Assembly: GCA_008632985.1 (NCBI GenBank)
Contig: QPGO01000101.1
Location: forward strand, 248,001 to 312,000
Source of the DNA: Psammoneis japonica
Taxonomy: Eukaryota
Direction of reading: 5' to 3'
DNA: 64,000 nucleotides
Shown here: one piece after another, positions 1,135-32,467 of the stretch
Layout: each line of letters begins with the position of its first letter
Numbering within the stretch: position 1 is the first letter of the stretch
The notes under the pieces: generated by a model
What the model was told of the DNA's origin: nothing
The model's input: the letters and a program-made list of their open reading frames with translations, nothing else
The model's database searches: none
Made by a program: the position numbers and the translations under genes

Positions 1135-2593
1135 TTTGTAGCATCAATTACACACGTCACACACAAGTCGTTATAGCAGACGTCTTTCTCATATCCTCAA
1201 CAAAAACCATCAACAACACGCAGCGATCATCGTGCTTCAACTTTGTGTCAGCGGTCATCATAGCGGGGCGCAAAAATCGAAACGGCGACTGACGTGCGCG
1301 CCAAAAAATAGAGACCCGGAAATTAATTTCCTTTAGCTCACTCGACCATCAATGATCGAAAACAATGGATCTCATGGGGTCACGCATGTTGCTTTTTGGT
1401 GGATTGACAAATCCAGGGACTTTGGATTAGCCACATCACTTGGTGTGGGTGTGGAGTTGCCATTCAACCACACTTTTTTCTGCATCTCTGACAGTTGTCA
1501 CCATGGTTCACTCTGTTTCTCTTTGTGGGGCGGCGCTTGTGCATTGCTCGGCAGCAGCACGGGCGCAGTGGTCTGTGCCCCCCCCTGTGCAAGTGTGGGC
1601 TTTCTTCCACAAATCTGCTTTTCCATCAGAAGACTGACACAGAAGCAGTGTGCGAGCCAATGAGAGCACCGCACAAGCTGCAGCAAGCTTGCTCCGCCCC
1701 TTGCAGAGCTGTCCAGCCAGAGCTCCAATTCCGGATTCCCTTGACATTGGTTGCTTCAGGCTCAATGCCTTGCACTTCTGGCTTGCGCCACAGTCATCCA
1801 GAGAGCTGGTCAAAGAGTGCATCAGATGCCGGAGGACAGCAATCAACAACCCATCAAAAAAATGGCTCCGCACAGAGATGAGAAAGTCCTCACACCGCTG
1901 TGTTTGTGCTGCAGAAAAAATGTGGCACAAAACAACCAGCACACACAGCTGTGACTGGCCTTGTGCAGAGTGGGAGGAATTTGATGGCTTTGGAGGCTGT
2001 TGGTCATTTTGAGCAGCAGTGGAGGCCAGCGCCAGCAGCAGCTGCCGGGCAAGCAGATGTGGTTGAGGTGCACAAGTTTGGCAATGGACAAAAGGGAATT
2101 TTGAGGGGGGAGCACTTGGTCAATTGTGGTGGCTGAGCTTTGGCTTTGGGTGGAGGGACCTTCTGCTGCTGTGCCACAACATGATCATGAAAAGAGAAGA
2201 AGGTTTTTTTGCTCTCATGGTGTGTGGCATGCCGTTTTCAATTTTCAAATCCAAGGGTGTGCTTGTTTGCAGATGTGCTGTGCACTGGTGCAGCTGCCTT
2301 TGAAAATGTCTGCAGAAGGCATGCATGTGCTCACATCAATTGAAAATGTTCCCACCAGGGTGTGCCCTGGGCAGCAATGCCAAATGTTGTGCACACCATC
2401 ACATGTTGCGTTGTCCAAAAACCAAAGGCTCAATGTCTCTAACATGTTTTGGTGCTTGTCAAGAGTGAAAATTGTCAGCAAAATAAATTGTTGCATTTGT
2501 GCCATCTTTGTCCACCAATCTTCAATTTGTCAAGTTGTCAACTGCAAAGTCTTTTGTGCGTCCAGCCACAAACAAGTCGACTGTCATTTTTTG

Positions 2594-2790
2594 TTTTAAG
2601 TTGGCTGCGTGGCCCAATTAGTCTGCATTTTAAACTTGTCAAGAAAGCACATTTTCCCCTCTTTTCTCACACTTTTTGTTCAGTCATGAACAAGTCCATT
2701 GTCAGTTTCCTTTTTAAGTTGGCCGTGTGGCCCAACTGGTCTGCATTTTAAACTTGTTGAGTCAGCACATGGTTTTTCCCTTTTCCACAC
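2594..2790 (+). repeat. Two direct copies (~118-bp spacing) of ttttaagttggc.g.gtggcccaa.t.gtctgcattttaaacttgt; possibly subterminal repeats of a DNA transposon
   Basis: Direct match between ~2594-2640 and ~2712-2757, upstream of the transposase relic at 3213. Confidence 0.6.
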
Positions 2791-3212
2791 ATTTCTCAGC
2801 CCTCCCATTTTTTTCCATTTCTCCCTGAGTTTTGCTCTGCTCTTTCATCCAATGCCCAATGACAATGGCACACCCCTGTCTCAGTCCTCTCTGTCCCAGT
2901 TGCATGTTGGACAACAGCAACCCACATGCTCTTTGCCAACATTTCCACAGGTGTCCCCAGTGTTTGTCCTTCCTCCAATTTGGCATTGACAATGCATCGC
3001 CCTCTCCCAATCACTCCCTGTGCAACAATGGAGCCTCTGCCTCCCTCAACACATCTCCAGACCTCCACACTCTTCCCTTGATTCAAGCACCAAAGGGTTG
3101 ATGTCCCTGTCTCTGCAGGACTGCAATTCATCTTGTCTCTTCCCGCTTCTCCCCCAGAAGCAAACAATCCTCCTCCCCTTGCAACAACAATCCCAGTGCA
3201 CCTGTTTGGGAT

Positions 3213-4260
3213 TTGTCTTTTGGCAATGACAACGATTTTCATCAAGCCCAGGACATGGAAACATCCAGTGATGGCTCTTTTGCTCCAGACAAATCTGATG
3301 ATCATTCCTTCCACAATGATGATGTCCTGTTCCTGGAGGAGGAATTTGATCTTCTCTCCAAAAACATTTCTCATTCCTCTTCTTCGGTTTCCAACCCGGC
3401 AAAGGACAAAGAGGAGGACACAGATGTTGGCTCTCACTGCTTTGATGCACAGGATCTGGAGGATGTGGATGAAGCTCAACTCTTGGAACCTCCACGGATT
3501 TGCAAAACCAACACAACCAACAAGCTTCGCCCTGTGGAGGAAGAGTTGACAGCGACAATGAAAAGACATTGTCTGTCCCTTGGTTTGCACAAGGCTTTTC
3601 TTTCCTGGGCAAGACGTGCCAAGGACAGCAGCTGTGAGCACAAGTCTCTGTCCTGCTCCATCAATTTGCAATGCATGAAAACAAAGCATTTGCATTTTGT
3701 TGGTCCAGAGCCCATTTGCTCCACTGTTCATGTTGGACCCAGATTTCCTCCCATGCACGTGCATGGGTTTTCCTTCCTGCATCATGTGAGAAGGGAGTTC
3801 TGTGACCTTGATGTCGTCCAGTCTTGCCAATGGTCACACCAAGAGAAATGCTGCCCCCAAACAAACGAGCACATTTGTGACTCACTCAACACAGGAGACT
3901 GGTGGAAGCAAGCTGAGAATGACCTCAAATCTTCTCTTGCTGAACTTGGCAATGACTGTCCATCTGGTTTGCATTGTGTTGGCCCAGTTGTGCTTTTTGA
4001 CAATTCCGCCATTTGTGACAACATTGGTCACCTGCAAGCACAACTCGTCCTTGTCACATTGGGCAACCCAAACAATGAGAGTCAATGCAGCCACTCCCTG
4101 TGGCCAACACTTGGAATGGTGCCACCACACCCAAAGACTGGTGACGAGTGCACTGCCGACCACCAGTCTGAGCTCAGACATCAGAGTGCACAATGTCGCA
4201 ACATCTGCACACATGACAAAAATGTGTTGCCACATCACAAAATCTGCTTGTCCACACATG
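3213..4260 (+). mobile_element. Truncated, degenerate Plavaka-like transposase relic (copy A)
   Basis: LNTGDWW...GPVVLFDN..CDNIGHLQAQLVLVTLGN...WPTLGMVP resembles the Plavaka N-terminal core (TG.WW, D.T..D..G...EP...TLGN, W..LGY.P) and parallels copy B. Confidence 0.55.
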
Positions 4261-5023
4261 ACGGTTTTTGTCATTCAGTTGACTGTCAATCTCCTGCCAT
4301 TCTTCATGTTTGAACACAGACGTTTTTTAATTTTCATGCTCTGCCTTTTTAATTTTCATGCTCTGCCTTTTTCACAACAACTGATGATCTTCAACGACAA
4401 GCCAAACATTGCAATTGCATGCAATGAAATTTTCATCATGCAAAGTGTGCGCTGATTGTTTGATCAACAAATGTGCTCCAATTTGCCCAGTCGTCCGCAT
4501 CGTCCTCTTCATTCCACATGTCTTGTCCGCTCTCTTGCAAGAATTTCAAATGTGCTGCTGCCGCGTTGGATGTTTCCTCGTCACTGTTCCAAAAAAGCCA
4601 CACTGCATTTCTTGCATTTGGGTGAACATCATTGAGAGGAAGAGGTCCCTCGAAATGCCGAATCGCATTGCTGCTGCCCTCTTGACGTTGTGTTGTTGGC
4701 TTCTTTTTCTCTTTCTTCATTTTGCCCATCCCATTTTTCTCTTCCTTCTTCATCTTGGCACTGCCTGTTTTCACCGTCTCCAGCGTCTTTCCATCCGAAT
4801 CCTTCTTTTTCATCGATCCCATCACCGTTGCCTTCATTGTCTCTTGTTGTTGTTTTTTTTTTCTGTTGTGTGTCACTTTGTTTTGGATCCATGTTTCTGA
4901 CTTCTCTCTGTGCCATCTCCATTTCCGAATGTTTCTTTGTGATTGTTCGCATGCGCCACTTGAAGGCACCCACATGTTCTTCACGCACCTTGACGCTCAT
5001 GTGGAAATCCATGTTGTTTTCCA

Positions 5024-7100
5024 GTGCATGCACCCTTTCTCCTGATGCTGTTTTGCACAACATTTTCTTCCATCAATTCTGCACTCTGTGTTGCCCTTTC
5101 CCGGCACAATCTCACGCAGGATTTCCCTGGGAGAAGTTGCGCGCGCGTCTGGCAGGTTTTTGTGTTTAAAACTCCAAATCCTGCCAGGCACGCGTGCAAC
5201 TTCTCCCACGCACCACTCTGGCACATTGCTGCAGAAACCAGATTTTTTGGTGTTGGAACAGCAACCATGGCACCGCATGACCTGTCGGTCGCCTCTCTGT
5301 TGCAAGACAACAATGATTCCTGCCTCGAGGAGGCCGCATTTGAATCTCTCTTCACCAACGGTTTTGGAGTGATCGACAGCAACGAGCGGAGCCATGTCAA
5401 AGCGACAATCGAGACGGTGAAATCCAAGGTTCAGTTTCACCACGACTCCACTTGTGACCCCTCTCCGAATTGGATCGTGCTTGCCCATGTGCGGCAAAAG
5501 TCAAAGGGCAGACCTCATTTTTTTGTAGAGCTGATGGCTGTAAACTGCATTGTTGCAAAGGAGCTTGGGTGCAAGAGCTTGCTGCACTTTCTTTCCACAA
5601 AAGGATGGAGTTGTTCCAGTCAAGGCGCCAAACATCCTCATGCGTTGGAGCATCACCGTGCTCCCAAAGCAGAGGATGTGAAAGTCATTGGTGACAAGGC
5701 AAAATCAACAGACATTGCAGCCAACATGATGGCAAAGATTTCCATGTTGTGCAAGCTTCTCCATGATCCCGGATTGTGCGACCCAAAGGGAGAGCCACTT
5801 GTCAAGCACATTGAGCTGAGAAGTTTTGAAGGGAGGGTTTTGCGTTGTGCGCAATGCCTTGACATTGGTTTTTTGATTCTTCGTGACAAGATTCTGCCGT
5901 GCGCACCTGAAGGGAATGGTGAACGCGATTGTTGGCTTTGCTCCCTGTTCGGCGAATGTGACAAGACATTGACTTGCATCAACTTTTTGGAGAATTTCCT
6001 GGCTCTTGGTCACTGTGAGACGACCAAAGACGAGTGCCCCATGTCCTTCCCTGAACTCGTAAAGTCGTTGTTCCGCCAACACAAAAATTCTTGGGAAAAG
6101 CCCATGTGACTGGCGATGCTCGATGTCGAGCGAGAACAAATGTGTGCAACACATGTCGATGAGACTCTTTTAAGATGTGTGAAAATTGATCGTGTGGTTT
6201 CTGCCGCTGACGATTCCGGCAAAAGCAAGGCCACAAGGGATCGTTTTGAGGCCACGTGGAAAGCCAGGCTTCGTGACTTTGCCACTCAGTGCAAGAAGAA
6301 AGAAATCGGCAATGCAATTCCATCGGTTACGAAAAATGCTCGGAAACAAAAAAATCCAAATGGCATGAATCCATCACATTGTTTGATTGATTGTTCATGC
6401 TCCTCTTCTTGTCTCTAATTCTTCTGTTCTTCTTGCCACCTCTTCAGCCGCCTCCCTTTGCTCCTCAAGCCCCAGTCTCAAAAACCCCAAAGATGACGAA
6501 CCTTCTGATGTTTCTCAGAACGAATCGCTGATTCTCCAAGATGTGCCAACTTTCAAGGAACAATTTGAGCATTCCCAAACAAAGTGGCCGACCCTTGGTG
6601 CAACTTGTCAGTCACCTCCTCCTCCGCCAGACAATTTCACAAAAGAAGAGCTTGTGAAAGTGTTTCCTGAACCATCTCCATTTGCGATTCTGGGTGAGGT
6701 GAAGTCACAACATTCTCACCTTGTCGTCTTTGAGGAAACCCCCATTTCTGGTTCCTTCAAGGGGAACTGTGTCAAGCACCAGTCATTCCACAGCATCTCC
6801 GATTTCCACTTGGTGAATCACCTCCGCAAGTTCATGCATGGATTTGAAAATGGCGCAGCTCCCAACAATCCGACACAAGAGCCGATGGTTGTGATTGCCT
6901 GCCCGACCCAGTCAACCTCTCATTTTTCCGACGTGGTCACTTGTTTGCGATGCACGGACAAGATGCATCAGAAATGCTTTTTTGGATTGCGAGTCAGTGT
7001 GTCGTTGACACTCCGTGCAGTGTTGGAACATGGCGAGCCGAACAAAAAAAGGGATGGACCAGAGTGCAAGCTGCGCTGTCCAATCTGTTTTGGTTGTTGT
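5024..7100 (+). pseudogene. Degenerate ORF(s) of unknown function, probably transposon cargo
   Basis: Protein-like 361-aa and ~240-aa frames with few Tyr, lying between transposase relics; no recognisable motif. Confidence 0.3.
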
Positions 7101-7119
7101 GGCCAGAATTACGAAGTCA

Positions 7120-10100: not shown

Positions 10101-10290
10101 ATCACTCATTGAAGATCTTGGGAATCTGCTGCAAGTGGATCGCCTCAGATGGGATTCGTCATCATCAGAGGACAAAGAGGAAGAACCACTGCTTTCTTCA
10201 GGTGGCCCCTCCATTGTGGCAGGAATGTTGCTTTGATCTGGGACCAGATCTTGGGTTTGCAACTCTTGGGCAACTGAGCAACATGTTGGT
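7120..10290 (-). mobile_element. Degenerate Plavaka-like transposase (copy B), frameshifted, with Tyr eroded
   Basis: Motifs IHLDKTG, GEPVIMT, WKPVGCLPDLE, ITGDAKSG..VGQ...RCCRFC, FKGGATSLTFL...WAGMAF and HRAHPSCKSEGPWHDFA (presumed ancestral YRAHPSY...WYDFA) match Plavaka (PF18759-type) transposases. Confidence 0.75.
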
Positions 10291-10817
10291 GAGCATCTCC
10301 AATGGCAGGCTGTTCGCAAAAAACTTTTGCCAATCCCAGGACAGAGAAGAGGGTTTCCGTCCATTGTCAATCAGACAACATTGACAGGGCCTTCATCACG
10401 ACTCACACTCGTTGTCCTTGTCTTGTGGATGAGAAGGGAAAAGAAGAACAACACGCAAAAAATGGCGGGAAATTGGCAAACATTGCATTGTCTTCCAGAT
10501 TTGGATGATTCTCACAGGTGTGACGTGTCTGAATTTTGATTTTTTATCTGGCATTTACAACGAACATTGCACTTTTTTTTTTGCTGTCAAAATGCAGGAT
10601 GTCATCTCCATTGAAATGCAATGACAGCCATGTCCAAAAGCAAGCTGGGCTGTTTGTTGTTGCACACAAATGTGTTCTCAAATTTCAGTGTCACTGACAA
10701 CAATTTGTTCAATGTCATGGAGAAAAACAGAGTGGCTGGCTGTCTCAACACAACCCAAATGACGGTTGCACTGTCGAACAGTGACACTCCTCTCATTGTT
10801 GCTGTGAAAAGATCAAG

Positions 10818-12389: not shown

Positions 12390-14430
12390 TGCACTCTGAT
12401 GGACAGAAGATGCACACCAAGTTCTGCCACGGCACCTTGTGCGAGATGTTTGCCGAGTTGCTTCAATTGTCCAAACAAAAGACTGGTTCCCCCATTGTGT
12501 TGCCCACTCTTGGCTTGGTCCATTTGCACTTTTGCTTGTGCATGATGACAGGTGACACAAAAGGCCATGATGACATGGCCTGTTGCTGAAACTCCCATTC
12601 CAGCAACATGTCTCACATGAACAGGGATTGTGACATGCCACAGCAATTTGGCGACAATCCCTTGTTTGGCTGCAAATTGGTGGATCAAGATGAAATCCAG
12701 AGGATTGTGCAGGCTGCCACAACAGTGGTGGAGGAATGGCAACACGGGGAAGTGACTGCCGCTTGGGAACAGTGCAAGGACATTTCTCAGCACTTGGCCA
12801 GTCCAGTGATCTGGGACATTCCTCATGGCGGTGGATGGCACGGCACATTTGGAATGCTGCCCTGGGAACTCCTGCATGCACTGCACTTGGGCCTGTGCAA
12901 GCACCTCCTTCATGCCTTCTTCAACTTGCGCCAAGTGCCGGAAAACATGATGTCCTGGTGTTGCGACCGTTTTGGAGATGGGGAATGCTCACTGGACAAC
13001 AGACCATCTGTTGCACTCAAAGATCTCCCAAGCTCTTCAACAAAGCAGAGTTTGAAAGACAATTCCGAGTTGCAACACATGCTGCCAGGAGACAAAGTGG
13101 CAGGAAGATGCCAAGAACTCCATTTGAGAATGGAGTTGCAGACCAGACACGCCTTTCTGGCCAGGAGAGCATCCTGGTTTGTTGCCAGTGACACTGGCGG
13201 CAATGAAGGGCGTGCCGTCAAAGGAAGATGATGAACTCCAGCCACTGGAGCCCCATTTTGCCAACCTCCTGTTCATGTCTCTGGGATTGGATGTGGCCTC
13301 GTCAAAGTCCTCCAACAAGGAAACGTTCCTCACCCGGCTGCAGAAATGCATTGCCAAGCATCTGCAATTGTCTCAATTTGTTGTTGGTCCATTCCGAGAG
13401 TGTTGCTCTCATTCGGGACTACAAACATCCAAGTTTTCCATGGCTTTCTTCACTTTCTCTTTTACATCCGTCAGTGTGGAAACGAGAACAACTTTTTTGG
13501 TGGGTTTTGCAAAGCACTCCCAAAGATGCTTTTGAAACAACCCACCAAAAATGCAAGTCAATGGCAGGACCGGCTTGACCTTGACGTGATTAATCGCCAA
13601 TGCAAGGACCTTGTTGCATGGGAATCAGAGAAGCATTTGCTTGAGACAGGTTGGCTCAATGAACAAGAACAACAAGATGTGGGGCCTGGGCCCCAACCTT
13701 CAAAGCATGGGTGCACACACCCATGCACAGGATTCAAACCTCATGAATCCATGATGACGGCCACCAGAGTCACCAACCCTGAACTCACTTGGTCAGTCAA
13801 ACATGGAGATAAACAGCTGCAGTCTCCTTCCTGTCTGTTTGTTCCAGGCAATTGCGGAAATCAGTGGGTGTCTGCTCTGCTTCACCAGGCAGACCAAAAT
13901 GAAGCATTCCCTCTGCAGAGGTGGCGAACTTTCACTTCGGATGTGACCTTCCTGGCACAGACAAAGATGAGCATGACATTCTAAGATGCCACCCCATCTT
14001 CCACTGGCATCCATGGGAATGCAGGAGTTGGCACAACTGGGCCATGGCAAATTGGGACAAAAACAAAACCAGCTGCTCAGTTGCAGCACGTGTGTTGTTG
14101 TGGGCAACTTTTGAACATGCAACCATGGGATGGAAATGCACAGTTTGTGCTGTCCAATCTCTTTGAAGCTTCACCCCAGAAAAAGATTCTTTCCTGTCGT
14201 TCTTTGTTGGTGATGAAACAGAAATGGAGGCGCAAGTTGTTGATGCAAGGGATGTGCTGTCCACCGCCTTTGTTCTTCCATCAACGCAATTGCCACAACA
14301 TCCATTCCCCATCAGTTTGGAGGATGCCACCTGCTTTGTTGTAATTCCTCCAAGATTTGAATGGCGCAACATGACTCTTTCTTTGACAGAAGAACACCCC
14401 AAGCATGAACATCTTGAGGAATGCTGGTGA
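12390..14430 (+). mobile_element. Degenerate Plavaka-like transposase, central and C-terminal part (copy C)
   Basis: FGMLPWELLHALHLGLCK, RQSGRKMPRTPFENGVADQTRLSGQE and ILRCHPIF..WHNWAMANW, spread over shifting frames. Confidence 0.7.
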
Positions 14431-16188: not shown

Positions 16189-16682
16189 AAACTTGCAACA
16201 TGTTCAGCAATCTGCGCAAATTGAGTGACTGCTTTTGGTTGGCCGGGGTGATGTCTTGTGCAAAGGATTGGTGATCTGGGTTGACCAGGGACCAACTGAC
16301 AATGGTCTCCATTGGCTCCATGGTGGGCAAACTGTCAACTGGCTGCATCTGGTCATCTTTCTGTGGGAAAGACCAGGCCATGCTAAAATCACCAATTGAC
16401 AAGCAGTGCAGCAGCTGCTTGGTCTCTCTTGAATTTCAAAACTTGCAACATGTTCAGCAATCTGTGCAAATTGAGTGACTGCTTTTGTTGACAGGGGTGA
16501 TGTCTTTTGCAAAAGATTGGTGATCCTGGTTGACCGGGGGCCAACTGACAATGGTTTCCATTGGCTCCATGGTGGGCAAACTGTCAACTGGCTGCATCCA
16601 ATCATCTTTCTGTGGGAAAAACCAGGCCATGCTAAAATCACCAATTGACAAGCAGTGCAGCAGCCACTTGGTCTCTCTTGAA
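16189..16682 (+). repeat. Tandem duplication, ~250-bp unit x2
   Basis: aaacttgcaacatgttcagcaatctg...ggtctctcttgaa occurs at ~16189-16433 and ~16439-16682. Confidence 0.85.
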
Positions 16683-18900: not shown

Positions 18901-19429
18901 GACAAGAGCTGCCCTCATCTGTTTCTGGTGTGGCGCACAAAGCAAAACTTGCCATTGGTGCATGCAACAGAGGAGATTCATCAAAAAAGCAGTGAGGAAC
19001 CTCATCTCTTCATGACAAAGATTGGCAATGGCCCAAATCAAATTGTCGACAACAGGAATGAACAGAAGGATCCAGTGAGTGCAGGTCAAGACAAGGGCTG
19101 GGTCCGTCTGCACAAAAAGTTAGACAAAATGGAACCTCATCATGATTTTGCAGAGAGACACGCAGATTTTACAAAATTGGGCACCTGTGGTGAAAACAAG
19201 CAGATCTTTGTCCTCAACAAAATGGGTCTGCACATCATTGTCTGCATTGAAATGCACTGCTGCACCAAAAAAAATGTCAACTTCCTGCAGACATGTCAGC
19301 AGTGGATGCTGAGTCGACAATTTTGTTGGCTGCATCTTCACCTTCCACCACCTCTCTTTGTCACCCTCCTCCATCTCTTCATCAACCAGAGGAATGTCGT
19401 CGGCACCCATCACAGATTTGTCATGAGCA

Positions 19430-20400: not shown

Positions 20401-22479
20401 CATGGATGGACTGTGTCACAACAACAAGCTGCAGAGCTCTCTCTTCCTCAGGCATCAAGTCTGCGCCATCAGGAGGGTCATCCAACAAGTTTGCTGGAGA
20501 ACGAACACCTGTGAAAAACTGAGCAACAAGAGTGACATTGTGAGAGTTAAAACAAAAAACATTGTTGGCAAGATTTCATTCAATCAAATTGCCTGGAGCA
20601 CTGCCATTGGAGCTGACTCTGTGCTTGTTGAATGCACTGTCAAGCAGGTCAGGAAACACAGCACTGCCTGCCTTTGGCAGAAGGGGGTGATTGGCCTGCA
20701 AGCAGAGGAAAGAAGCAAAGGTGCTTGATTCTTGGTTCATGAAGTTCAAGGCTGAGGGGCCAACCTTTTCCCAAAACCTTTGATGGTCATCAGCGGTGCT
20801 GCACTTGTGAATTGACTCACCCTTGTCCTTTGGCAAGAAGACCTGTTCCCAAACCATCTTTGCAAAGGGAGATTTGAAGTGAACACTGGCATCCAGCAGT
20901 GACTGGAAATTCATGGTGTTTGCAATCTCTTGTTTCGATGCAAAACCAAGAGAGAACAGTGGCACTCAACCTGCCTTGGAGTTGCTCACCTTGTTGACAA
21001 GGTCCCTCTCCAGAGTTGTCATTTCTCTGGTGTGAAGTGTCTTTTTCTGCACAAGGCGGAGAGACTCCATGGCTTTGTTGGCTTGGGCAATTTTTTTCAC
21101 ATGTTCATTTGCCCCACTCTGAATTTCCTTAACCAGCTTTTTGTTTTGGTGTTTGTGAAGTCCATGCATTCACCAAATGAAATGCAGCCACATTTTGCAC
21201 TCCGCGTGTGTCAAATTTTTGGGGTCAAGCTGGCAGGTGGCGCACTGCTCTCAGAGGCCTGAAGCAGTTTGGGATTTTTGTAAGAAGGGATTGCATCACG
21301 TTGCCAAAGAAGTGCAAGATCTTGTGCTGGAGTTGCCAGAGAGTCCACAACTCCATCCATCTCTTGGGAGAGAGAGGAAGGAGTGGCAGCAGCTTCAGTT
21401 GGTGGGTCATTGGACAGTGAATTTTTGGAAGCAGAGGGAGTTTGTCAACGTGGGCTGGCCCTCCTTGTGGCTTGTGCAGGAGCAACGGGACTGCCCCATC
21501 CTGCATCCTGACTGGCACCACGACCACCACCACAGCACTGCTGTGGTTGGAGCTGGCATGGGTGGCACGTTGTTGGGTCATCTTGCTCCACTTCCTTGGT
21601 GGCATGGTCAATGAACACACCAAATGGCAAACATGCATGGGTGGAAAAGTCCGGCTGCTGGAGGCAGAGAAAAAACAGGGAAATTTCACTTCATTCTCAA
21701 CAAGAGCACATTGACAAGACACAATGTCAAACAACCAGAAAACAAAAAAACATTTGTGAGATAAGAAGAAACAAAGGCGCCACATAAAAGAATGACATTG
21801 ATGACATTGTGATGCATTTGAGTCTTTCAAAACATTCAAAAATTCACAAATTGATGCAAAACATTGTGTTTTAAAGCAAAAATGTAACTTCAACTGTGAC
21901 AGCAAATGAAGTGGGCGGATGGATGTGACAGAAATTCTGGTCAAAAACGAGTGGTGATGTCCTGACATGACACAAAACACAAAAATGCATGGCAGAGAAC
22001 AGGGCCATGAGAGAGACACAAGTGGGGAGAGGAAGTGGCATGGCAGAGAGCATCAGAGGCCGCAACACAGTGATGTTGTCACATCTTCTCACAGTGATTT
22101 TCATTCCTTTTGCAGATGTGATTTTTTGCAGTTTCAAACCTTGTTGGTTGTGCAGCTGGCAACAAAATTTAATCCATCATGGACAATTTTTTTAGCCATG
22201 GAGACCTCTTTTTGTCTGTGAGAAAACAACTTTGACTTTCTAAAGGCCCCCCACTTTTCCCTTTTTGCGTGTGTCTTCTTTGACCACAGCTGCCAACAAT
22301 CAACATCAACAGTTTGTTTTGCATCGTGCACCAGTTTTGCCATTTGCATTGACACATGCAATGAACTCAATCCACTCTTCTCAATCAACAGTGACACATT
22401 GCTTCAGCTTTTTGACATTGATTGTCAACGAATGCCAAGTCAATGCTGCGGTCCTGGTTGTTTTGCATTTCCAATTTGC

Positions 22480-23630
22480 TCAGGCTTTGTCTTCCTCCCC
22501 ATGTCTTTCACCACCTGGTTTGTCCGTTTCATCATCGTCCTCCTCGTTGTCACTAGAAAGCTCTGTCATTGCTTGCGTTCTCGTCTCTGACTCCACTGGT
22601 TTTTCAGTGTTTCTTCCCTTTTTTCCTTTGCCTTCGCTCTCCTCTTTCTTTCTGTCTGTGTGCCAAGTGTCAAAATGCACACCCTCCTCACTTGCCCTGT
22701 TTTCCTTTGCCTCCTTCAGCAGTTCATTGAAGCACACTGTTCCTTCATCTTCCCAAGAGTCACGCTGTCGTGACGGGTCTGTGCACAATGGCGCCGGTTC
22801 ATCCTCTTCACTCCCCTTGTCATTTCCCTCCTGCACTTTCTTGTGCTCCCAAACCTTCCAGCAGTTTTCCATCATCAACAGGGCCAGTGCCTCATTGCTT
22901 GCTGCAGCCAGATCTGTGGCCTTTGTGCAGCCGGACTCTGCCATCCTTCTCCACATCGCAGCGCTCTTCATGAATTTTAGGATGTTGTCACAGAACCATG
23001 CATGTGCCTCCCTGTTCTTTTGCTTCTCATGCACAAGGGTGTCAACCATCCCATCCTCCCAAGTTGCGTGGAATTCCTCTTCAATGTCTGCTTGGTTTTG
23101 TTTCTGCTTTTTTCTGCCTCTGCCTGCCCTCTTCCTTGCTTCTTTCTTCTTTTTTCCATGGATTTCTCTGGCTTGTTTTTCTGTCATGACAACTGGAGCG
23201 AAATGAGAAAGTCATTGGTGGTGCCACACCTGTTTCCGCTCTGCCCCAGTCTGCCACACTCACCACTCATTGCACTCTTCATTGTCGTCTGACACATGGT
23301 GTTTCTTTTTGCATTGATTGCATTGAGCATGCTTTTCTTCGCCCAGCCCTCCCATGCTCCCGCCCATTCGCGCTTGCTGAACTTGCCATCTGCTGTGTTT
23401 TTTTGCATGAGCCAGGACACCTTGCCACCACTCGCCATGTCCGTCTTCCCAAGGAATTTTGCCTTTGGGAACAGCTCTCTCTGTGCCACCTCTTCCACCT
23501 CCCTCTTCAGCAATTGGTGAGCAGCAGCTGCCCCCGACCACTGCAACACCGCTGTCAGCCTTGGGTCAGTGGGCCCTGCCCCTGCAGCATCCTTTTTTGC
23601 TGCTTTGGGCCTCCTTGCCATTGCCCTCAA
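22480..23630 (-). pseudogene. Second copy of the transposon accessory-ORF relic, inverted relative to 10818-12100
   Basis: PRLTAVLQWSGAAAAHQLLKREVEEVAQRELFPKAKFL versus PRLQAVLKRTGAQAVHGALKSEAEKVARNDLFPQVKFL; NEALALLMMENCWKVW versus DEALALSAVENCWQVW. Confidence 0.65.
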
Positions 23631-24016
23631 CTCATTGTGTCACCGTCAGTTTCTCTGTTTGCCACAATCGCGCAGCACAACAGCTCTTCAGAGGAAGACC
23701 GGCTTTGCAAAATTTCAAACCTGTTTCCTGCACTCTGATGGTGACACTGCTGCCCCTCATCATGCATTTTCAACTGGCATTTCTTTCCAAAACAACCACA
23801 AATGCTGATGTTCATCGTTTTTCTTTGAAAACAACATCTGTGGTTGCATTTGTTTTAGTTCAAAAGATGAAATGTTCAATCCAAACATTGCAATTGATTG
23901 TCAATGACAAATTTGTTGTGCAACTTGATCGCTGCATTTGAAACTTTTAATCATGCAGATTCATGCATCAATGTTGGCCCTCACATGGGGCAGAAGCTTG
24001 CATCCAGCATGAGCTC

Positions 24017-25600
24017 TTAACCTGAAACAATGCTTGGCGCCAAAATCACTCTCCAGCCCACTTCTTCCATGGCATCATCCTCTAAATGGACAATGACAAA
24101 ATCGCTGTGCCTGCCCTCATTGGAGCAGTCAGTCATGCGATTGAACGTGTCTGTTGCCTCACGAACACAACCAACGAAACGCTCCACGTGAAGATGATGG
24201 ATCTTTTCTTTCTTCATTTTTGGACAATGTCTCTGCCAATGTCTCTCCATTTTGTCCTCACAAAAACAGCTGGAATCCACACCCAAGTTCATTTTCTCAA
24301 TGATTTCCAACATCCAACCATCAACCGTCCTTGGTGTCAATTGAAAGAACTCCAATTTGTTGCACCGCCACAACCTGTGGCATGTGTCTCGCATCATTTG
24401 TCGCTCAAACAATTCCGCCAGCATCGGCTTCATGTCACACTTGTCATCACAGCAGTGGCCAATGGGGCTTCTGCTGTTGGTGACTGCCTTGAAGGACCAT
24501 GTGTTGCCAAAGGCATCCATGACAAAGAAACAACCGGTGGCTGTTTTCCGATGTCGAAGCCAGGTGCAGTTTTTTTTGTCACGGTGTCCATCACAGAATT
24601 GGCCATGGGACATGCACAATCCATGAAGAGTGACGTCCTCCCACTGGAAACAGAGACAACCCATTTCGTTGCTGAACACTTTTGAGTGCTCGTCATGGCA
24701 AAGTGACCAGTTGAATGGTGGAGGGTTGCCAAGCTTCCGAAGCTCGACCTCGTTTTCGCAAAGCTGAGTCGAGCCAAGAATGTCTGCCACCATGGCCTTG
24801 ATTTTGGATGACTCTTTTGCGTTGAAGTTTTTGTCGGGATCAAAAACGTCAAGACCACATGTGGCCTTGGGTTTGGCAGTGTCTGTGGAGCCTGGCTCCT
24901 TTGGATGATGCGACTGCCCAGCACATCCAATCTTGATCCTTCGTCTGTCTTCCTGAACTGCGAGCGATCCATCCCGTTTTAGACCTGACTTGCCCTTCAA
25001 CAAAATGAAAAGCAAGAGGGTGGGAATGCACACACAAAGGCAACCAAAGTGGCCTTTGTAGAGAGAGTTTGCTTGTCGGGCAACAGAGAGTTCGTCTCAG
25101 TGGTGACTGAGGAGGGTGCTCGGCTCTGACACGGGAGGTGGTGGTGGGATTGCTCATGGGGGTCTTGTTGGCACAGATGTGCCAGTTTTCCCTCAGGTTG
25201 TCTGCAAGGCAAAAGTCAGCAGTGGAATGGTGAAGCACACGCTCAGTGTTGGTTGCCTTGTCAATGATGTGAAGGCGTGACATGTGGGCAGCGACTTCCT
25301 CTGAGGCAACTGAACGACAGTTGGGTGGGTCAAAGCACTGACGGAGAGCAGACTTGTCCAGCCACGACATGTCGTTGGGGTCCAGTGGAGGAGACAATGC
25401 AACCGGGCAATTCCCGGCATTGACAGAACCAGAGGCAGGTGGCTTGGAGGGGGGTCCTTCTGGGGAAGAAGAGGATTTGACAGCATCCACAGTTTCGACA
25501 AAGTGGGAAGGTCGGAAGTGAGAGTGCGGCGTGCCTCCCTGGACGACGGCGCATCGACAGATGAAGGAGCATGTGCCGGGTTTGACCGTGATGCGGGCCT
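24017..25600 (-). pseudogene. Degenerate ORF of unknown function
   Basis: Consecutive protein-like, Tyr-free frames (213 aa and 338 aa) on the same strand. Confidence 0.3.
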
Positions 25601-27129
25601 TGACTTCTTGTCAGGGACAGTCACAGAAGGCTCTTGTGGTGCACACAACATCAATGAAAAAAAATGATTGGATGAGAAAAGGGGTGCACACAGGAGTTGA
25701 GGGAAAAGGGGGGAGGACACACGCCATCACACAAACAGGTGCCATCTTTGCAGATCCTCCTGATTTTGCATTTGGTTTTGGATTGACACTCTCATTTGTT
25801 GTCATCGTCCATGTGGTCAGCCCTCTGATCACGCACTCTGCAACAAAGAATTGTGAGCAACTTGCTGTGCTTGAGTCGTGTGCCAGGTTGCTCCTTGGGG
25901 CAGCACTTTCCAAACCCATGATTCAACATGCAATTGCACCTGCCATTGACACAAGGTTCTCCATGTTGCCAACTTGGTCAGGTGTGATGAATTCCTTGAC
26001 ATTGCCCCCCTGGGAACCCAGGTTGTTAGAATCACACAAGACTGGAAAGCTGTTGACAAACATGCACCACTCCTTTTGGGATTTGACATTGCAAAAAATC
26101 TGCGTGAACCAACAAACAAAGCTTGGCACTGGCGTGACATTTTGCTTTCGAACGGAGATTGCTCTTGGGAACTTTCATGACTGAACATGTTCTTGAACTT
26201 AACAAACTGAATGTCCACAATGACAAAAGACTCTGGGACACATTGCTGTCATTGCTGTTGTTGTGACAATGCACCACCATCATGTCACCAATTTTCAGTG
26301 ATGATGCGTGTGGCGCACACAAAGTTTCCAGCACAAAAAAATTCAGAAAGTCCCAATCATCTTGCCATCCATCTGCTCGTTGTGCGAATGCCTCAAGAAA
26401 GCTGGATTCTTGACAAGAAAGATTGGATTCTGAACAAGAGCAGTGACATTTTCCAGACAAAAGCCAATCACTTGTGTGTCAAGCAACCAGGCTTGCAGGC
26501 AGTTTCAACAGAAACAAAGTGTTGAGTGAATGTCAAAGTCACAACTTGCAGTTGGTTGGGCCATGCTGAGACAAAGCCAGCACACAAAACATCTTCAAAT
26601 CTGAAGCAGCACAACAAATGGCCTGGACTTTTTTGTGCCTCTCTTGTTGCTTCGATGGAAAATCACAGAATTGGGCTGTGTCAAGGTGTCTGAAATTTTG
26701 TGACACAGCAATGCTGTTGTTGAATGGTTGAAACACAAAGGGCCAGCACAAAGGGCCTGGTGGCACAGCTGTGCTCCAAAGTCATTGACCAGAAGAGGTC
26801 AAAAATCAGCCAACAACTTTGCAGTCAAATTGTTTCTCTCTTGTCATTTCAACAGGAAAACAAAGCACAAGGGCATTGAGCTCAATCTGCATGACACTGT
26901 GGCTCCATTTCAGGCACAAGCTGTGAAGTGCAGCAACGGTGCAACTGTTTTTTTTTCTTCCCACAAACACAATGCTGCCTTGCACTGCACCAGGATGTCA
27001 TGACCAAGGTGCTTTGCTCAGCTGTTGGATGGTCATTGTTGTGTTAAGTTGCAGTTGTTGTTGTGCTGTCCTCTGTTCTGGTGCAAATGTGGCTCCTGTG
27101 GCCACAATGTTTTTTGAAAGATTTTGGTT

Positions 27130-27280
27130 CTTCAAGAGCCAGTTGAGTGCGCTTTTGTGGGAAATGTTGTTGTGTGCCAAGCTGCTGAATGCATCTGATG
27201 CACCAACTGCCAGTGCAAAAACAGACACAGGAGCACAAAAAAAGTGTGGCAAGCCCTCATTTTGCAACATGCATTGTGCT
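27130..27280 (-). pseudogene. Eroded copy of the 5' end of the DUF445 gene (copy 1)
   Basis: CAPVSVFALAVGASDAF and HTTTFPTKAHSTG versus the gene's CVPVSVLALAIGTSDAF and HTTTFPTKSHSVG. Confidence 0.8.
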
Positions 27281-27489
27281 GCTGTGCTTCACACCTTGTG
27301 TGAACAGCTGTGCACACAATGCTCTGAGGATGCACCCCTGCACTGAATGTGGTTGCCAGAAACAACAAAACAAAAGATTGGAGACTCACCTTGCTTTTGC
27401 ACACTTCACCAGAAAATCTGAGATTGCTGCACTCTCATTTGCCGCGCAGCTTCTGAGCTCACTTGGCATGTCCTTGACATGCCTGTGTT

Positions 27490-27790
27490 GCCACCCAATT
27501 TGATTTTGTGGGAAACATTGTTGCGCAGCATCCAGAGCAAGATGTGGCAGCACAGTTGAACAAGCCACTGCCAAACATGTCTGATGCACCAATCTCCAGT
27601 GCAAGAACAGCTGCAGAAGCACAAAAAGCAGCACACAGCAACCCCCAATTTTGCAGCATCAGTTGTTGAGGCAACACACAAGTCATCGCAGCAGATGTCT
27701 TTCTCGTCCTCAACATTGACCATTGGCTCAACATCAAATGCTTTGATTGTGGATCAATGCACCGCTTGCAATGCTTCCACACTTTGACTT
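27490..27790 (-). pseudogene. Eroded copy of the 5' end and upstream region of the DUF445 gene (copy 2)
   Basis: AVLALEIGASDMF...MFPTKSN; upstream acacacaagtc...gcagatgtctttctc..tcctcaaca matches ~1160-1205. Confidence 0.8.
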
Positions 27791-29420
27791 GCTCTGATGC
27801 AAGATTGTCAGAAGAGAGGAAATGATGCAGCAACTCAAGGTTGTTTCATTGTTGCACTTTTGTTTGCTGTGCAGCAGCTGTGCACTGCAAATTCATTCAC
27901 TCTGCACCTTTTCAGTTGGCCAAACCACAGCATGAGAGAAAATCTGTTTCCTGCCCTGTTTCGCACAAGGACACTTCTTGAGTCAACAACAAACTGATTG
28001 CAAACACATGCTTGACAATGTGCGACAATCTGCAGCCAAACAAATCTGCCTCGTTTGTCATTCTGATCCTCACAAAGCATTGCCAATTCATTGCCAGCAA
28101 TTTGTCAAGCAATTTGGCGAGCAATTCACCACACTTCACCATGGCAAAACAAGGATTGTCCAAAATTTTTGATTTGACACCTCATTGGGCACAAGTTTTG
28201 AGGTGTGTGAACACAAAAGGTGTCTGTCAACAGCTGTGTGGCATTCAACAGCTTTCATTTCTCATGTGGGTGCACTTGAAAAAATCTCAAGAGTCAAATT
28301 TTGAATCCCAAACACAGCAACAAAGCAAAAGTCAAAGTGGGGCTGCCAGAATGAAAAATCCTGTCTCAAGCTGAAAATGATTCTGTGGCTCTGGAGCCGC
28401 TGAGCCACACAAAGAAAGGACAACCCAGATGCAAATTGTTGTGGCTTGCCATGGCATTGATGCTCAACAGCTGTGACAGGATGTTGACACTCTCAGTCGT
28501 GAACCACATCAAGCTTGAATTGCTGGAGACAGAGCTTTGCATCTGTGTGCTGAGAATGGTGAACAGACCAAGAAGCAAAGAGAAAAATCAAGAAGCTCAG
28601 AGAAAACCTCAACCAGGAAGAGTGCTTTGAGGCACTGCTTGCTGAAATTAAATCTCTTGTTGCATTGTGTCCAAGACGGTGAGCTTGGGTGCAATTTTGC
28701 AGGAGTCTGAATCCTCTTTTGCTCTTGCAGCTGCTTTCCTTGCTCCATGCTTGGTTGCCTTGGCTCCAATTCTTGGGTCAAAGTTTCAAAACAAAAAAGG
28801 AGCCGTGCTCCAGCCAAATTCAGTTGCCACCCCTCAAGTGCAGATGCTGGCACCTGCTGGCTCAACAAGTTGGTGGAATCAAGTCCCTCATCAGCAAACA
28901 CCAGCTGAAACAATTTGGCAAGCTTGTTGACCGCAAACAGAGCTTTGCACAAAAAATGGCTCAATTCATTGAGAATTGGTTTTTTGGAGGTCCCAATGCT
29001 GTTCCTGATGACAGGTTTGACGTGAATCCACACTGTTGGAGGGAGTTAGAGTCATGCCACAACATGCTGTGGGTTGCCATTTTTAATTTTCCAAAGTCAA
29101 TCTTTTGGAAGATGTGTGCATTCTTCAGTGAAGAGATCTGTTTGCCAGGAGATGGTGATTGGGAATGATCTTCGTGAGAGATGTCTGTTCCTTCCCAGAT
29201 GCATGATTTGGCAAGCAATCTGTCAGATGGCTTGTGAATCACCTCGATGCCATGAAAATTAGGCTGTGATCAAAACCTTGGGAGAAAGAAAGCTCTCTTG
29301 TAGCTGCACATGTGGAATGAACGCGAACAATGCAGTTAAAGCATTCATGAAGCCCAGCACATGTGTGCAAGAAAACACTTTTTAAAAACCAATGTAAACA
29401 ATTTATGTGTGGGGAAAATG

Positions 29421-32462: not shown

Positions 32463-32467
32463 ATGGC

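Follow-up and report, generated by a model that had tools for sequence, protein, structure and literature searches.

The window analysed here, a stretch of DNA of 64,000 nucleotides, carries long, intron-free ORFs and falls into genes and four TA-poor blocks (Table 1), in which the observed/expected ratio (o/e) of TA is 0.04–0.15, compared to 0.48–0.57 in the genes between them. Ca. 45 of the 64 kb are affected, and TA loss is near saturation; loss on this scale in repeat-rich stretches destroys the genes inside. The TA-poor domains have sharp borders, with 0.2–0.5 kb of spill-over into unique flanks. In 1-kb windows, TA o/e was 0.00–0.10 at 2–29 kb, 0.04–0.10 at 43–50 kb, 0.11–0.16 at 61–64 kb, and 0.07–0.31 over a Copia element at 33–40 kb, against 0.37–0.71 in genic windows. 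The longest stretches devoid of TA measured 1604, 1579, and 1200 bp. In block 1, the region flagged by the first-pass annotation, TA makes up 0.28% of dinucleotides, with 2937 TG and 2961 CA. That annotation's picture of TA-poor, TG/CA-rich blocks beside normal genes is borne out by both segmentation and dinucleotide ratios, and its TA counts (none in 12601–13419, nine in 1081–1200) are exact.

Comparison of o/e values for all 16 dinucleotides in blocks and genes revealed loss of TA (0.05 vs. 0.54) and CG (0.38 vs. 0.96) and gain of TG (1.72 vs. 1.21) and CA (1.71 vs. 1.15), while the remaining 12 differed by 0.17 or less. The other A/T dinucleotides were unaffected (AA, 1.30 vs. 1.20; AT, 0.84 vs. 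0.93; TT, 1.25 vs. 1.17), so that a general AT>GC drive is ruled out. Thus, the TpA dinucleotide is the specific target, being lost as TG and CA are gained. Both strands are used equally and neighbouring sites are resolved independently: a runs test of strand outcome gave z = 0.6, and the SD of local TG–CA skew was 0.102 vs. a binomial 0.097. Surviving TA sites lay in an ATA/TAT context in 14/129 cases in blocks and 8/66 in the Copia element, vs. 312/650 in genes (Fisher P = 1e-16 and 6.5e-9). TAT/ATA contexts are lost preferentially, a bias that could partly mirror ancestral composition.

Table 1. Features of the window (positions counted from its first nucleotide)
Feature	Position	Strand	Basis or property
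TA-depleted block 1 (flagged region)	1401–29300	.	Two-state segmentation: 79 TA in 27,900 bp, TA o/e 0.042, CG o/e 0.35
UDG-superfamily (SMUG1/UDG-like fold) ORF relic, 495 aa, without Tyr	14315–15799	-	Relatives and fold match
Multi-copy part of block 1	22001–26669	.	Summed contig depth 950–2300 vs. ~61–64 single-copy (depth not equal to copy number)
Single-copy yet TA-poor stretch	26808–29300	.	5 TA vs. 89 expected, Poisson P = 1e-31
Diverged copy of host-gene 5' region 983–1202	27493–27715, inside block 1	+	Pairwise comparison
TA-depleted parts of block 32301–40200	32301–36100; 37101–40200		Two-state segmentation: TA o/e 0.15; 0.14; CG o/e 0.87–1.0
Copia left flank	32301–32463	.	0 TA vs. 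5.8 expected, P = 0.003
Ty1/Copia LTR retrotransposon, partly converted	32464–39713	-	RVT_2 E 3.7e-28; paired LTRs
Copia LTRs	32464–32702; 39474–39713		93.3% identity
RT-RNase H ORF, 543 aa, inactivated	32632–34263	-	YVDD -> HVDD; QVDYTN -> QVDCTT
gag-protease-integrase ORF, 1605 aa	34142–38959	-	gag_pre-integrs and SH3_retrovirus matches weak, both under Pfam cut-offs
Copia right flank, single-copy, 3' end of ankyrin ORF	39714–40200	.	2 TA vs. 17.4 expected, P = 5e-6
TA-depleted block	43001–50100	.	Segmentation: TA o/e 0.06, CG o/e 0.38
Tandem duplication, 1506 bp, inside 43001–50100	44356–45861; 45860–47365		99.93% identity
Palindrome containing the 61101–64000 block	Arms 60850–62148; 62242–63540
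TA-depleted block, reaches window end	61101–64000	.	Segmentation: TA o/e 0.12, CG o/e 0.61

The sole classifiable element in the window is the Copia retrotransposon (GC 0.547, TA o/e 0.18, CG o/e 0.91). Its family is high-copy, with a summed contig depth of 4000–6570, a measure flagged by the tool as not equal to copy number. The blocks had been called transposon-rich beforehand; just this one Copia element is recognizable, a search of block 1 and of the 43–50 and 61–64 kb blocks gave neither a transposase nor any Pfam family above cut-off, and within block 1, whose part from 22 kb onwards was compared with reads, multi-copy status is demonstrated for 22.0–26.7 kb only. No viral hallmark was found in the window. 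The gag-protease-integrase ORF contains 0.6% Tyr and owes its open frame largely to the near absence of TAA and TAG.

The two LTRs show 15 differences, transitions only, and 14 of these belong to the TA/CG<>TG/CA classes (four TA<>TG/CA singles, three TG<>CA doublets, and four CG<>TG/CA changes). The right flank, part of a region (39686–42000) covered by a single-copy contig, encodes 162 aa with no Tyr and 5.6% His, and its TA depletion is spill-over from the element. Since the LTRs differ at TpA sites, unique flanks are depleted, and a single-copy stretch of block 1 is converted as well, the action followed integration. Deamination of 5-methylcytosine at CpG is also active in the blocks (CG o/e 0.35–0.61) and accounts for four of the 15 LTR differences; it gives the same TG and CA products but cannot remove TA. 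In the young Copia element, most TA is gone at a CG o/e that is still 0.91; CpG>TpG/CpA decay, which occurs in the same domains, is therefore separable from TA loss and slower, in line with the earlier proposal that a separate CpG decay also feeds TG/CA.

At the protein level, the Copia RT was aligned to 80 relatives, a conserved Tyr column being one in which 70% or more of them carry Tyr. Tyr was retained in none of the 13 such columns (His in six, Cys in six, Phe in one); most other residue classes were kept at ca. 70–100%, and conserved Met was kept in two of seven columns and read Val in four. Polarization of 67 single-step replacements yielded 20.7 A>G and 12.0 T>C changes, with 6.0 and 1.0 in the respective reverse directions. 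A 5' T accompanied 15.7 of the 20.7 A>G changes (baseline 30%), and a 3' A accompanied 10 of the 12 T>C changes (baseline 31%), confirming enrichment of both at TpA once changes are polarized. Relatives of the element family are not TA-free: 66 metagenomic loci related to the Copia RT have a TA o/e of 0.47–0.91 (median 0.65), vs. 0.18 in the window element.

None of the 107 frames of block 1 with 110 aa or more matched a Pfam family, and a six-frame read-through gave none either. Its longest ORF is nevertheless 495 aa, vs. a maximum of 475 in 200 second-order Markov simulations, and its fifth-longest is 345 aa, vs. a simulated 95th percentile of 255, which indicates that block 1 holds relics of coding sequence. 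Relatives of the 495-aa ORF number 69, the best matching with 34% identity (E 3e-31), and a Pfam family was found in 0/21 of those tested. The AF2 model of one relative, P0127 (pLDDT 89.9), retrieved SMUG1 as all of the top 10 Foldseek matches (best E 2.1e-3) and the UDG superfamily as all of the top 15 VIA matches (Z 10.1–6.7). Against 40 relatives, all seven conserved Tyr columns of the ORF were changed, three to Cys and four to His. Across both proteins, 20/20 tested Tyr columns were thus replaced, 19 by Cys or His and one by Phe. The encoded functions are lost, every tested conserved Tyr being gone and the catalytic YVDD of the RT reading HVDD. The first-pass annotation had assigned Tyr to Cys/His replacement to transposases; it holds for the retrotransposon RT and the UDG-fold ORF, and no transposases were found.

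Copy pairs within the window display the conversion directly. In two pairs, 21/25 TA sites of the normal copy correspond to TG or CA in the block copy. Of 14 TA sites in the host-gene 5' region, eight became CA, three TG, two CG, and one AG in the copy inside block 1, which is without any TA and shows no changes in the reverse direction; the two TA>CG cases do not fit a strict TpA rule. In the palindrome, the left arm has kept its TA over the outermost 251 bp (60850–61100), whose 11 sites read TG (six), CA (four), or TA (one) in the partner arm, with one reverse case. Copies differ by TG<>CA doublets, which implies that each copy had its sites resolved separately.

The single-copy stretch of block 1 lies within one 5707-bp contig (run X1) that spans 26808–32514 at a depth of 63.9 with three differences. 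The sequence-bearing runs come from one sample of one study, with the platform unrecorded, and are possibly the assembly's own source. The conversion of this stretch, together with the conversion of only the in-block copy in two pairs, makes targeting look domain-based, unlike homology-based RIP.

We estimate at roughly 85% the probability that localized, DNA-level TpA hypermutation in particular, most likely silenced, domains has ultimately given rise to the TA-free blocks. The T:A of TpA steps would be changed to C:G, with TpG or CpA as the product depending on the strand hit. A mutator acting on either strand, as the earlier annotation had proposed, is supported by the polarized RT, UDG-fold ORF, and copy-pair evidence; it would act on integrated DNA within particular chromosomal domains. 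The latter would most likely be silenced, 5mC-marked heterochromatin: retrotransposons, other repeats, and whatever else sits there. Targeting is probably by chromatin state, and the process may serve genome defence. As to chemistry, the leading candidate is a TadA/ADAT2-type enzyme that would deaminate adenine in DNA to hypoxanthine. The natural tRNA substrate of such enzymes is A34 after U33. An equal alternative, predicting the same sequence data, is that thymine at TpA is turned into a base that pairs with G.

The first-pass annotation took such a process to be undescribed, but TpA>TpG/CpA hypermutation has already been reported in one earlier study, a 2026 preprint on a different alga, Bigelowiella natans (Mettrop et al., bioRxiv 10.64898/2026.01.13.699255). 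According to its main text, 230/231 new mutations in two viral inserts of mutation-accumulation lines were A>G or T>C changes, every one of which lay at a TpA. TpA still accounts for 3.3% of dinucleotides in one active target, the NCLDV insert, and for 9.2% in the other, a virophage insert. The genome contains 124 small TpA-poor clusters; RT and DDE domains are enriched in TpA-poor CDS, and affected sequences are mostly unannotatable. As described there, the B. natans process resembles that in the window in being almost only A:T>G:C, solely at TpA, with TpG or CpA by strand, in being confined to regions adjoining normally evolving genes, and in its long-term footprint of TpA depletion with CpA+TpG enrichment. 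It differs in that viral inserts are targeted and retain TpA, while the recognizable target in the window is an LTR retrotransposon and the ca. 45 affected kb are near saturation. CpG decay accompanies the older blocks of the window, unlike in the B. natans account, and flank spill-over, TAT/ATA preference, and lack of strand runs are window features absent, by term search, from the main text of the preprint. New mutations were caught in B. natans lines, whereas the window process is known from its footprint. The two are of the same kind, the window representing what is probably another, intron-poor and possibly diatom-like organism, closer to saturation. Protein searches with window ORFs retrieved neither the proteins themselves nor any near relative in an annotated proteome, the best matches standing at 73% and 60% identity, and one further search gave no match.

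Homology targeting as in fungal RIP, with the same chemistry, is the strongest rival; the single-copy TA-free DNA would then be an old, diverged repeat or spill-over. RIP, too, hypermutates by dinucleotide-specific transitions, inactivating repeats and leaking into their flanks, much like the spill-over seen here, and both processes are visible in TpA/CpA/TpG indices. Two tested regions (the Copia element and 22.0–26.7 kb) are multi-copy, and TG<>CA doublets show sites resolved copy by copy. The earlier claim of repeat targeting finds partial support: the 2.5-kb single-copy stretch is fully converted, far beyond the reach of Copia-flank spill-over, and in the two pairs only the in-block copy is converted, although these pairs are short (~220–250 bp) or at a block edge. 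RIP hits both duplicate copies, in the sexual cycle, while the process in the window spares the genic or edge copy. RIP also runs in the opposite direction (C:G>T:A, mostly CpA>TpA), makes DNA AT-rich and TA-rich, and employs cytosine methyltransferase-type enzymes (RID/DIM-2). The hypermutated NCLDV insert of B. natans is described in the preprint as single-copy (10.64898/2026.01.13.699255). We consider homology targeting unlikely.

Very improbable is pre-integration editing, in which ADAR- or ADAT-like A to I conversion in retroelement RNA or cDNA is fixed by reverse transcription and integration. The best-characterized target is a retrotransposon, and ADARs prefer a 5' U, as stated in the B. 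natans preprint (10.64898/2026.01.13.699255). Likeness to the converted Copia copy is at least 99% in 891 and 95–99% in 1046 of 4298 contigs, so TA loss may be partly family-wide; the converted copy may then have kept multiplying, or some editing may have preceded integration. TA survival of ~0.5 in the LTRs vs. ~0.2–0.3 implied by internal TA o/e (small numbers) points the same way. However, the LTRs, identical at integration, differ at TpA sites; unique flanks, the single-copy stretch, and the host-gene fragment copy are also converted; and the Copia copy, with all conserved Tyr lost and YVDD mutated, must be incapable of autonomous propagation. ADAR hyper-editing of repeat dsRNA shares A>G change, 5' U/T preference, and repeat targets with the window process, but acts on RNA in strand-coordinated clusters; in the window, genomic DNA is changed on both strands, site by site (TG = CA, no strand-coordinated runs), including non-retroelement DNA. 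The preferred 3' neighbour is G for ADAR and T in the window. APOBEC3-type cDNA editing likewise cripples retroelements by deaminase-type hypermutation, but is C>U (read as G>A), strand-coordinated, and pre-integration. As the sole cause, pre-integration editing is largely refuted.

Less probable still is an artefact, in which a modified base (e.g., T or A) at TpA in silent DNA is misread and no TA has really been lost. Dinoflagellates are known to carry modified thymines at TpA, and the runs, of unrecorded platform, may be the assembly's source. Yet the TA-free sequence recurs in public-run contigs, the 5.7-kb contig repeating 2.5 kb of it at the depth of the adjoining genes, although from a run that is possibly the assembly's own. 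Strand-dependent misreading would yield conflicting TG/CA reads at each site and break this contig. Full coding consequences are visible in the RT and UDG-fold ORFs, partner copies carry fixed, differing outcomes, and the B. natans changes are, according to the preprint, heritable mutations in Illumina-sequenced lines (10.64898/2026.01.13.699255).

Native composition or a general bias (anti-TA selection, e.g., as protection against TA-targeting insertion or nucleases, GC-biased gene conversion, or always-TA-poor foreign DNA) would agree with the under-representation of TA throughout the window, genes included (o/e 0.54), but is refuted by the polarized comparisons: replacement of conserved and catalytic Tyr in 20/20 columns points to damage, not adaptation, relatives of the element are far richer in TA, and paired copies show conversion directly.

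The window is eukaryotic DNA of ~49% GC, with long intron-free ORFs and one Ty1/Copia element. Two-state segmentation on TA counts set four TA-depleted blocks apart from the genes that separate them, where the TA observed/expected ratio was 0.48-0.57; coordinates of the blocks and of other features are collected in the table below. Block borders lay no more than ~0.2-0.5 kb from the ends of genes or LTRs. Only four of the 16 dinucleotides separated blocks from genes: TA (observed/expected ratio of 0.05 in blocks vs. 0.54 in genes), CG (0.38 vs. 0.96), TG (1.72 vs. 1.21), and CA (1.71 vs. 1.15). Since AA, AT, and TT were unchanged in the blocks, a general AT to GC drive is excluded. About 45 of the 64 kb were affected, the loss of TA being near-complete across tens of kilobases. 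Segmentation and the 16-dinucleotide comparison thus confirmed the TA-poor, TG/CA-rich blocks beside normal genes described in the first-pass annotation, whose counts (zero TA for 12601-13419 and nine TA for 1081-1200) were exact.

Coordinates of TA-depleted blocks and other features of the window
Feature	Coordinates (strand)	Basis	Remark
Block 1	1401-29300	two-state segmentation on TA counts	79 TA in 27,900 bp, obs/exp 0.042
Copia element and flanks	32301-40200	two-state segmentation on TA counts	TA obs/exp ~0.14, milder middle
TA-depleted block	43001-50100	two-state segmentation on TA counts	obs/exp 0.06
TA-depleted block	61101-64000	two-state segmentation on TA counts	obs/exp 0.12
Host-gene 5' end and upstream region	983-1202		diverged copy 27493-27715, inside block 1
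ORF in block 1	3102-4310		403 aa
UDG-fold ORF relic	14315-15799 (-)		495 aa
Tandem 249-bp unit	16188-16686		two copies
CesT-like ORF	31521-32597 (-)		358 aa
Copia element	32464-39713 (-)		Ty1/Copia LTR retrotransposon
LTRs of Copia element	32464-32702, 39474-39713		239 and 240 bp
RT-RNase H (RT) ORF	32632-34263 (-)		543 aa
Ankyrin ORF	39643-42645 (-)		1000 aa
Tandem duplication	44356-47365		1506-bp unit
DOT1-like methyltransferase ORF	51509-52303 (+)		264 aa
Palindrome	60850-63540		arms 60850-62148 and 62242-63540

The intron-free ORFs of the genic parts (~14 kb of window ORFs are without an intron) encode an FG-GAP protein of 2446 aa, two ankyrin proteins (1000 and 665 aa), and a DOT1-like methyltransferase. 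In block 1, TGA occurred 1301 times, TAA 90 times, and TAG 37 times (both strands summed), and because TAA and TAG are scarce relative to TGA, the blocks are crowded with long overlapping ORFs. Converted DNA, with almost no TAA or TAG, thus contains many long spurious ORFs, and real genes in it lose every Tyr, so that it is misread by the usual gene-finding and domain-search tools. Block 1 comprises a multi-copy part, several ORFs longer than expected by chance, and one identifiable gene relic; its 403-aa ORF had no relatives in a protein search. The Copia element was assigned to its class by an RVT_2 match above the cut-off (E 3.7e-28) between two direct LTRs of 93.3% identity. Matches to gag_pre-integrs and SH3_retrovirus were below Pfam cut-offs, no rve match was obtained in the Pfam search of the element, and no clean target-site duplication was seen.

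Four polarised comparisons support the view that TA was lost from the blocks by mutation, as opposed to being scarce in their native composition. For the RT ORF of the Copia element, 238 relatives were found (best 58-60% identity), and 80 of these were aligned. At the 13 columns with Tyr in 70% or more of the 80 relatives, the window ORF has His in six, Cys in six, Phe in one, and Tyr in none; most other residue classes were retained at ~70-100% in the same alignment. Conserved Met was retained in two of seven columns and is now Val in four, the outcome expected from a T|ATG to T|GTG change across the codon border. Motifs were altered too, with catalytic YVDD read as HVDD, QVDYTN as QVDCTT, and SLYGL as GLCGL. 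Polarisation of 67 one-step RT replacements gave 20.7 A>G and 12.0 T>C changes, and only 6.0 and 1.0 of the respective reverse changes; replacements outside the A>G and T>C classes reflect the normal divergence expected between the ORF and relatives of ~58% identity. A 5' T was present at 15.7 of the 20.7 A>G changes (76%) and a 3' A at 10 of the 12 T>C changes (83%), against baselines of 30-31%.

In the second comparison, seven Tyr columns conserved in 40 relatives of the UDG-fold ORF relic of block 1 were found as Cys (three) or His (four), and the relic contains no Tyr vs. 2-4% in the relatives. Summed over both ORFs, Tyr was replaced by His ten times and by Cys nine times. The first-pass annotation had placed such Tyr to Cys or His changes in transposases. 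They were found in the Copia RT and in the UDG-fold ORF, but no transposase was confirmed: neither in block 1 (107 frames, each 110 aa or longer, and thereafter all six frames translated through their stops, which were set to X) nor in the 43-50 and 61-64 kb blocks (52 frames) did any Pfam family score above its cut-off.

The two remaining comparisons employed pairs of copies within the window. In the left palindrome arm, TA density is normal over the outer 251 bp (60850-61100); the 11 TA sites there in the partner arm read TG in six cases, CA in four, and TA in one; the reverse direction was seen once. The 14 TA sites at the 5' end and upstream region of the host gene read CA (eight), TG (three), CG (two), or AG (one) in the diverged block-1 copy, and none is TA. 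Together, TA became TG or CA at 21 of 25 sites. CA<>TG doublets that distinguish repeat copies were not counted as evidence of polarity, as an ancestral CG yields the same doublets. Native composition or selection, and GC-biased conversion, were rejected or down-weighted against the polarised comparisons. As a baseline, 66 metagenomic loci encoding relatives of the Copia RT had TA observed/expected ratios of 0.47-0.91 (median 0.65) at a GC content of 0.35-0.55, vs. 0.18 and 0.547 in the Copia element; the scan patterns contained Tyr, which makes converted relatives undetectable and the absence of TA-depleted loci from this set uninformative.

Both strands were hit equally, with 2937 TG and 2961 CA in block 1. 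Outcomes at neighbouring sites were independent (runs test z = 0.6 in block 1 and 0.37 in the Copia element), and local skew did not exceed the binomial expectation. A T:A to C:G change at TpA on both strands, as had been proposed, is thus borne out by the polarised comparisons (with A>G and T>C changes enriched at TpA in the RT alignment), the copy pairs, and the TG/CA balance. Surviving TA sites were enriched for TAA/TTA. An ATA/TAT context was found for only 14 of 129 survivors from the blocks (Fisher P = 1e-16) and 8 of 66 from the Copia element (P = 6.5e-9), vs. 312 of 650 genic sites. From this depletion of ATA/TAT among survivors, TAT appears to have been converted first.

The CG observed/expected ratio was 0.35-0.61 in the older blocks vs. 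0.91 in the Copia element. Since TA is mostly gone from the latter at this CG ratio, the TpA process is separable from CpG decay, and is faster. Decay of CpG alone is therefore insufficient, in agreement with the first-pass annotation. As a rough estimate from small numbers, roughly one in two TA sites and one in five CG sites would have changed per LTR, vs. one other difference per 239 positions.

The two LTRs of one element are identical at the time of integration. Those of the Copia element now differ at 15 positions, all 15 being transitions, and 14 belong to the TA/CG<>TG/CA classes (TA<>TG/CA in four cases, TG<>CA doublets in three, and CG<>TG/CA in four). Because the LTRs are unlike at TpA sites, conversion of those sites followed integration, and, judging from the sequence, the TpA process acts on integrated DNA. 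Unique DNA around the element is converted as well: the right flank (39714-40200) has two TA vs. 17.4 expected (P = 5e-6), and the left flank (32301-32463) has none vs. 5.8 expected (P = 0.003). The 162 residues of the ankyrin ORF coded by the right flank outside the LTR include no Tyr and 5.6% His. This 1000-aa ORF reads 24 codons into the LTR before a stop; either the Copia element inserted into the 3' end of the ankyrin gene, or the stop of the gene was lost.

Copy number was approached through X1, a public sequencing run, in contigs covering 22001-42000. Depth over genes was ~61-64 (single-copy), and summed contig depth, which does not equal copy number, was 4000-6570 over the Copia element and 950-2300 over 22.0-26.7 kb. 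The segment 26808-29300 is single-copy, being matched by one 5707-bp X1 contig with three differences, and has five TA vs. 89 expected. Thus, the description of the process as repeat-targeted in the first-pass annotation holds in part: the multi-copy Copia element and 22.0-26.7 kb are converted, but so is single-copy 26808-29300, and homologous copies outside the blocks are spared. Because flanks and a single-copy stretch are converted and, in two copy pairs, the in-block copy alone is, the pattern favours a choice of target by domain of the chromosome over one by homology, and speaks against an origin at the RNA or cDNA stage. Many of the aligned contigs are at least 95% like the converted Copia copy, and TA survival seems lower inside the element than in the LTRs, so part of the Copia conversion may be common to the whole family. 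The window and X1 single-copy contigs differ at five sites, too few for a spectrum. No RNA run was listed among those containing the window sequence. Two further runs were inspected over 22001-42000: X2 contigs comprised genic parts alone (29.3-32 kb and 39.3-42 kb), with no TA-free or Copia DNA except an LTR edge, and X3 had no coverage of this region.

The signature is the same as one reported in 2026 for the alga Bigelowiella natans (Mettrop et al., bioRxiv 10.64898/2026.01.13.699255), and the statement of the first-pass annotation that such a process was undescribed is outdated. According to this preprint, 231 of 302 new nuclear point mutations in mutation-accumulation lines fell in integrated NCLDV and virophage DNA, and 230 of the 231 were A>G or T>C changes, every one of them located at TpA; the measured de novo rate was ~6e-7 per site and generation, about 1000-fold above background. 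The B. natans genome is said there to contain 124 TpA-poor, CpA+TpG-rich clusters, with RT and DDE domains enriched among TpA-poor CDS, and its authors propose DNA adenine deamination via an ADAT2-like enzyme. The main text of the preprint is silent on trinucleotide context, flanks, retrotransposons, and other species. In the literature searched, the TpA process was described in this preprint alone, and no report was found for diatoms.

The window shares with B. natans the excess of A>G and T>C (20.7 and 12.0 of the 67 polarised RT replacements, with LTR differences 15/15 transitions), change at TpA to TpG or CpA with TA as the sole depleted A/T dinucleotide, involvement of both strands, and discrete blocks beside normally evolving genes. 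The targets may differ: those described in the preprint for B. natans are viral (NCLDV and virophage), whereas the recognised targets in the window are the Copia retrotransposon and unclassified repeats, and Pfam scans of the window blocks revealed no viral hallmarks. The footprint reported for B. natans is modest, and that of the window near-saturated. The window carries a signature known since 2026, in what is probably a new lineage. It is unlikely to derive from B. natans, whose genes are rich in introns, and the Atlas cluster of P0085, a relative of the RT, names Bacillariophyta for just two members, a slight hint of diatom affinity.

Two better-known kinds of process fit less well. Fungal RIP changes C:G to T:A (CpA to TpA) and raises TpA, the direction opposite to that in the window. 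It also mutates all copies, whereas in the window pairs only the in-block copy is converted, the pairs being short or at a block edge and the comparison weak for long duplications. ADAR-type RNA hyper-editing leaves strand-coordinated clusters, which by the runs test are absent from block 1 and the Copia element; here the LTRs are unlike at TpA, and flanks and non-retroelement DNA are converted. The independence of neighbouring outcomes likewise differs from APOBEC/ADAR clusters. RNA editing before integration was, along with base-modification artefact, rejected or down-weighted.

At its core, the process is a TpA-specific A:T>G:C change in double-stranded integrated DNA, made on either strand and independently at each site. 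Its action is domain-bounded, with short spill-over into neighbouring DNA; it may be coupled to silent, methylated chromatin, and may serve in defence. The same sequence outcome, TAT/ATA bias included, would follow from deamination of adenine in one strand or from a thymine derivative in the opposite strand that pairs with G. As the enzyme, a TadA/ADAT2 type is an attractive candidate because its natural target in tRNA, A34, is always preceded by U33; a 3' U is not known to be among its natural contexts. Any mechanism would have to accommodate integrated double-stranded DNA as substrate, use of either strand, independence of sites, domain borders with ~0.2-0.5 kb of spill-over, sparing of the outside homologue, and early loss of TAT/ATA.

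Only one earlier report, on a single alga, describes a targeted A:T>G:C mutator that acts at TpA (10.64898/2026.01.13.699255). In the window the signature is almost complete, kills an LTR retrotransposon family, and accompanies CpG decay, apparently in another organism. If this is true, the process is not peculiar to one species and would stand among protists as a second, mirror-image counterpart to the RIP of fungi.

The gene relic of block 1, 495 aa, exceeds the longest ORF in all 200 second-order Markov simulations of the block. It had 69 relatives (best E 3e-31), and no Pfam family was found for it or for 21 tested relatives. A structure model was made of one relative, P0127 (pLDDT 89.9), not of the mutated window ORF. 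In Foldseek, the top ten matches of the model were all SMUG1, at a best E of only 2.1e-3; in VIA, the top 15 all belonged to the UDG superfamily (UDG, SMUG1, MUG, SMUG2, UdgX, and TDG; Z 10.1-6.7). The modelled fold would thus place the family in the UDG-superfamily alpha/beta fold, closest to SMUG1 and family-4 UDG. A C-terminal H-P-S motif (H315-P316-S317) is invariant or nearly so, and E-S-H-A, not the canonical G-x-x-P-G type, stands where we take motif 1 to lie. A PDB profile search with the family found no UDG, and scans of viral_contigs and metagenome_contigs found no relatives. By tblastn against the window, no further relics of the RT or UDG-fold relatives were detected, except for a weak 70-aa match at 10148-10339. 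A dead base-excision enzyme within base-edited DNA is suggestive; nothing ties the gene to the TpA process. As a long shot, TpA DNA editing would be an old, chromatin-coupled genome immunity common to distant protists (a chlorarachniophyte and this intron-poor, possibly diatom-like organism) and here the main destroyer of retrotransposons and silenced DNA, spreading with the silent domain and not by homology and preferring TAT, and the UDG-superfamily gene would once have served a mobile or foreign element as a counter-defence that cut out the edited base (hypoxanthine or oxidised thymine).

Several further features were noted. The 249-bp units, which stand ~390 bp upstream of the UDG-fold ORF, are 92.8% identical; most of the differences between them are transitions, with two CA<>TG doublets among these. 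The tandem duplication lies in a TA-poor block, and its units are 99.93% identical with one CG/TG-type difference; it either arose very recently or is a product of assembly. The palindrome starts ~250 bp upstream of the FG-GAP gene, and its 1.3-kb arms are 77% identical overall and 90% identical in the outer 251 bp spared from conversion; the only N of the window (62082) lies near its centre. The 358-aa ORF matches the bacterial CesT (Tir chaperone) Pfam family (E 3.4e-7, 30.8 bits vs. a cut-off of 22) and adjoins two ankyrin-repeat genes, all intron-free; it may be of bacterial or viral origin. A word-indexed search of a 5.8-billion-protein collection with the DOT1-like ORF gave two relatives as the only matches, both with PF08123 (73% and 59% identity), a result suggestive of a sparsely sampled lineage. 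The best identities in protein searches were 73% for the DOT1-like ORF and 60% for RT, and the matches included neither the window proteins themselves nor any close relative from an annotated proteome.
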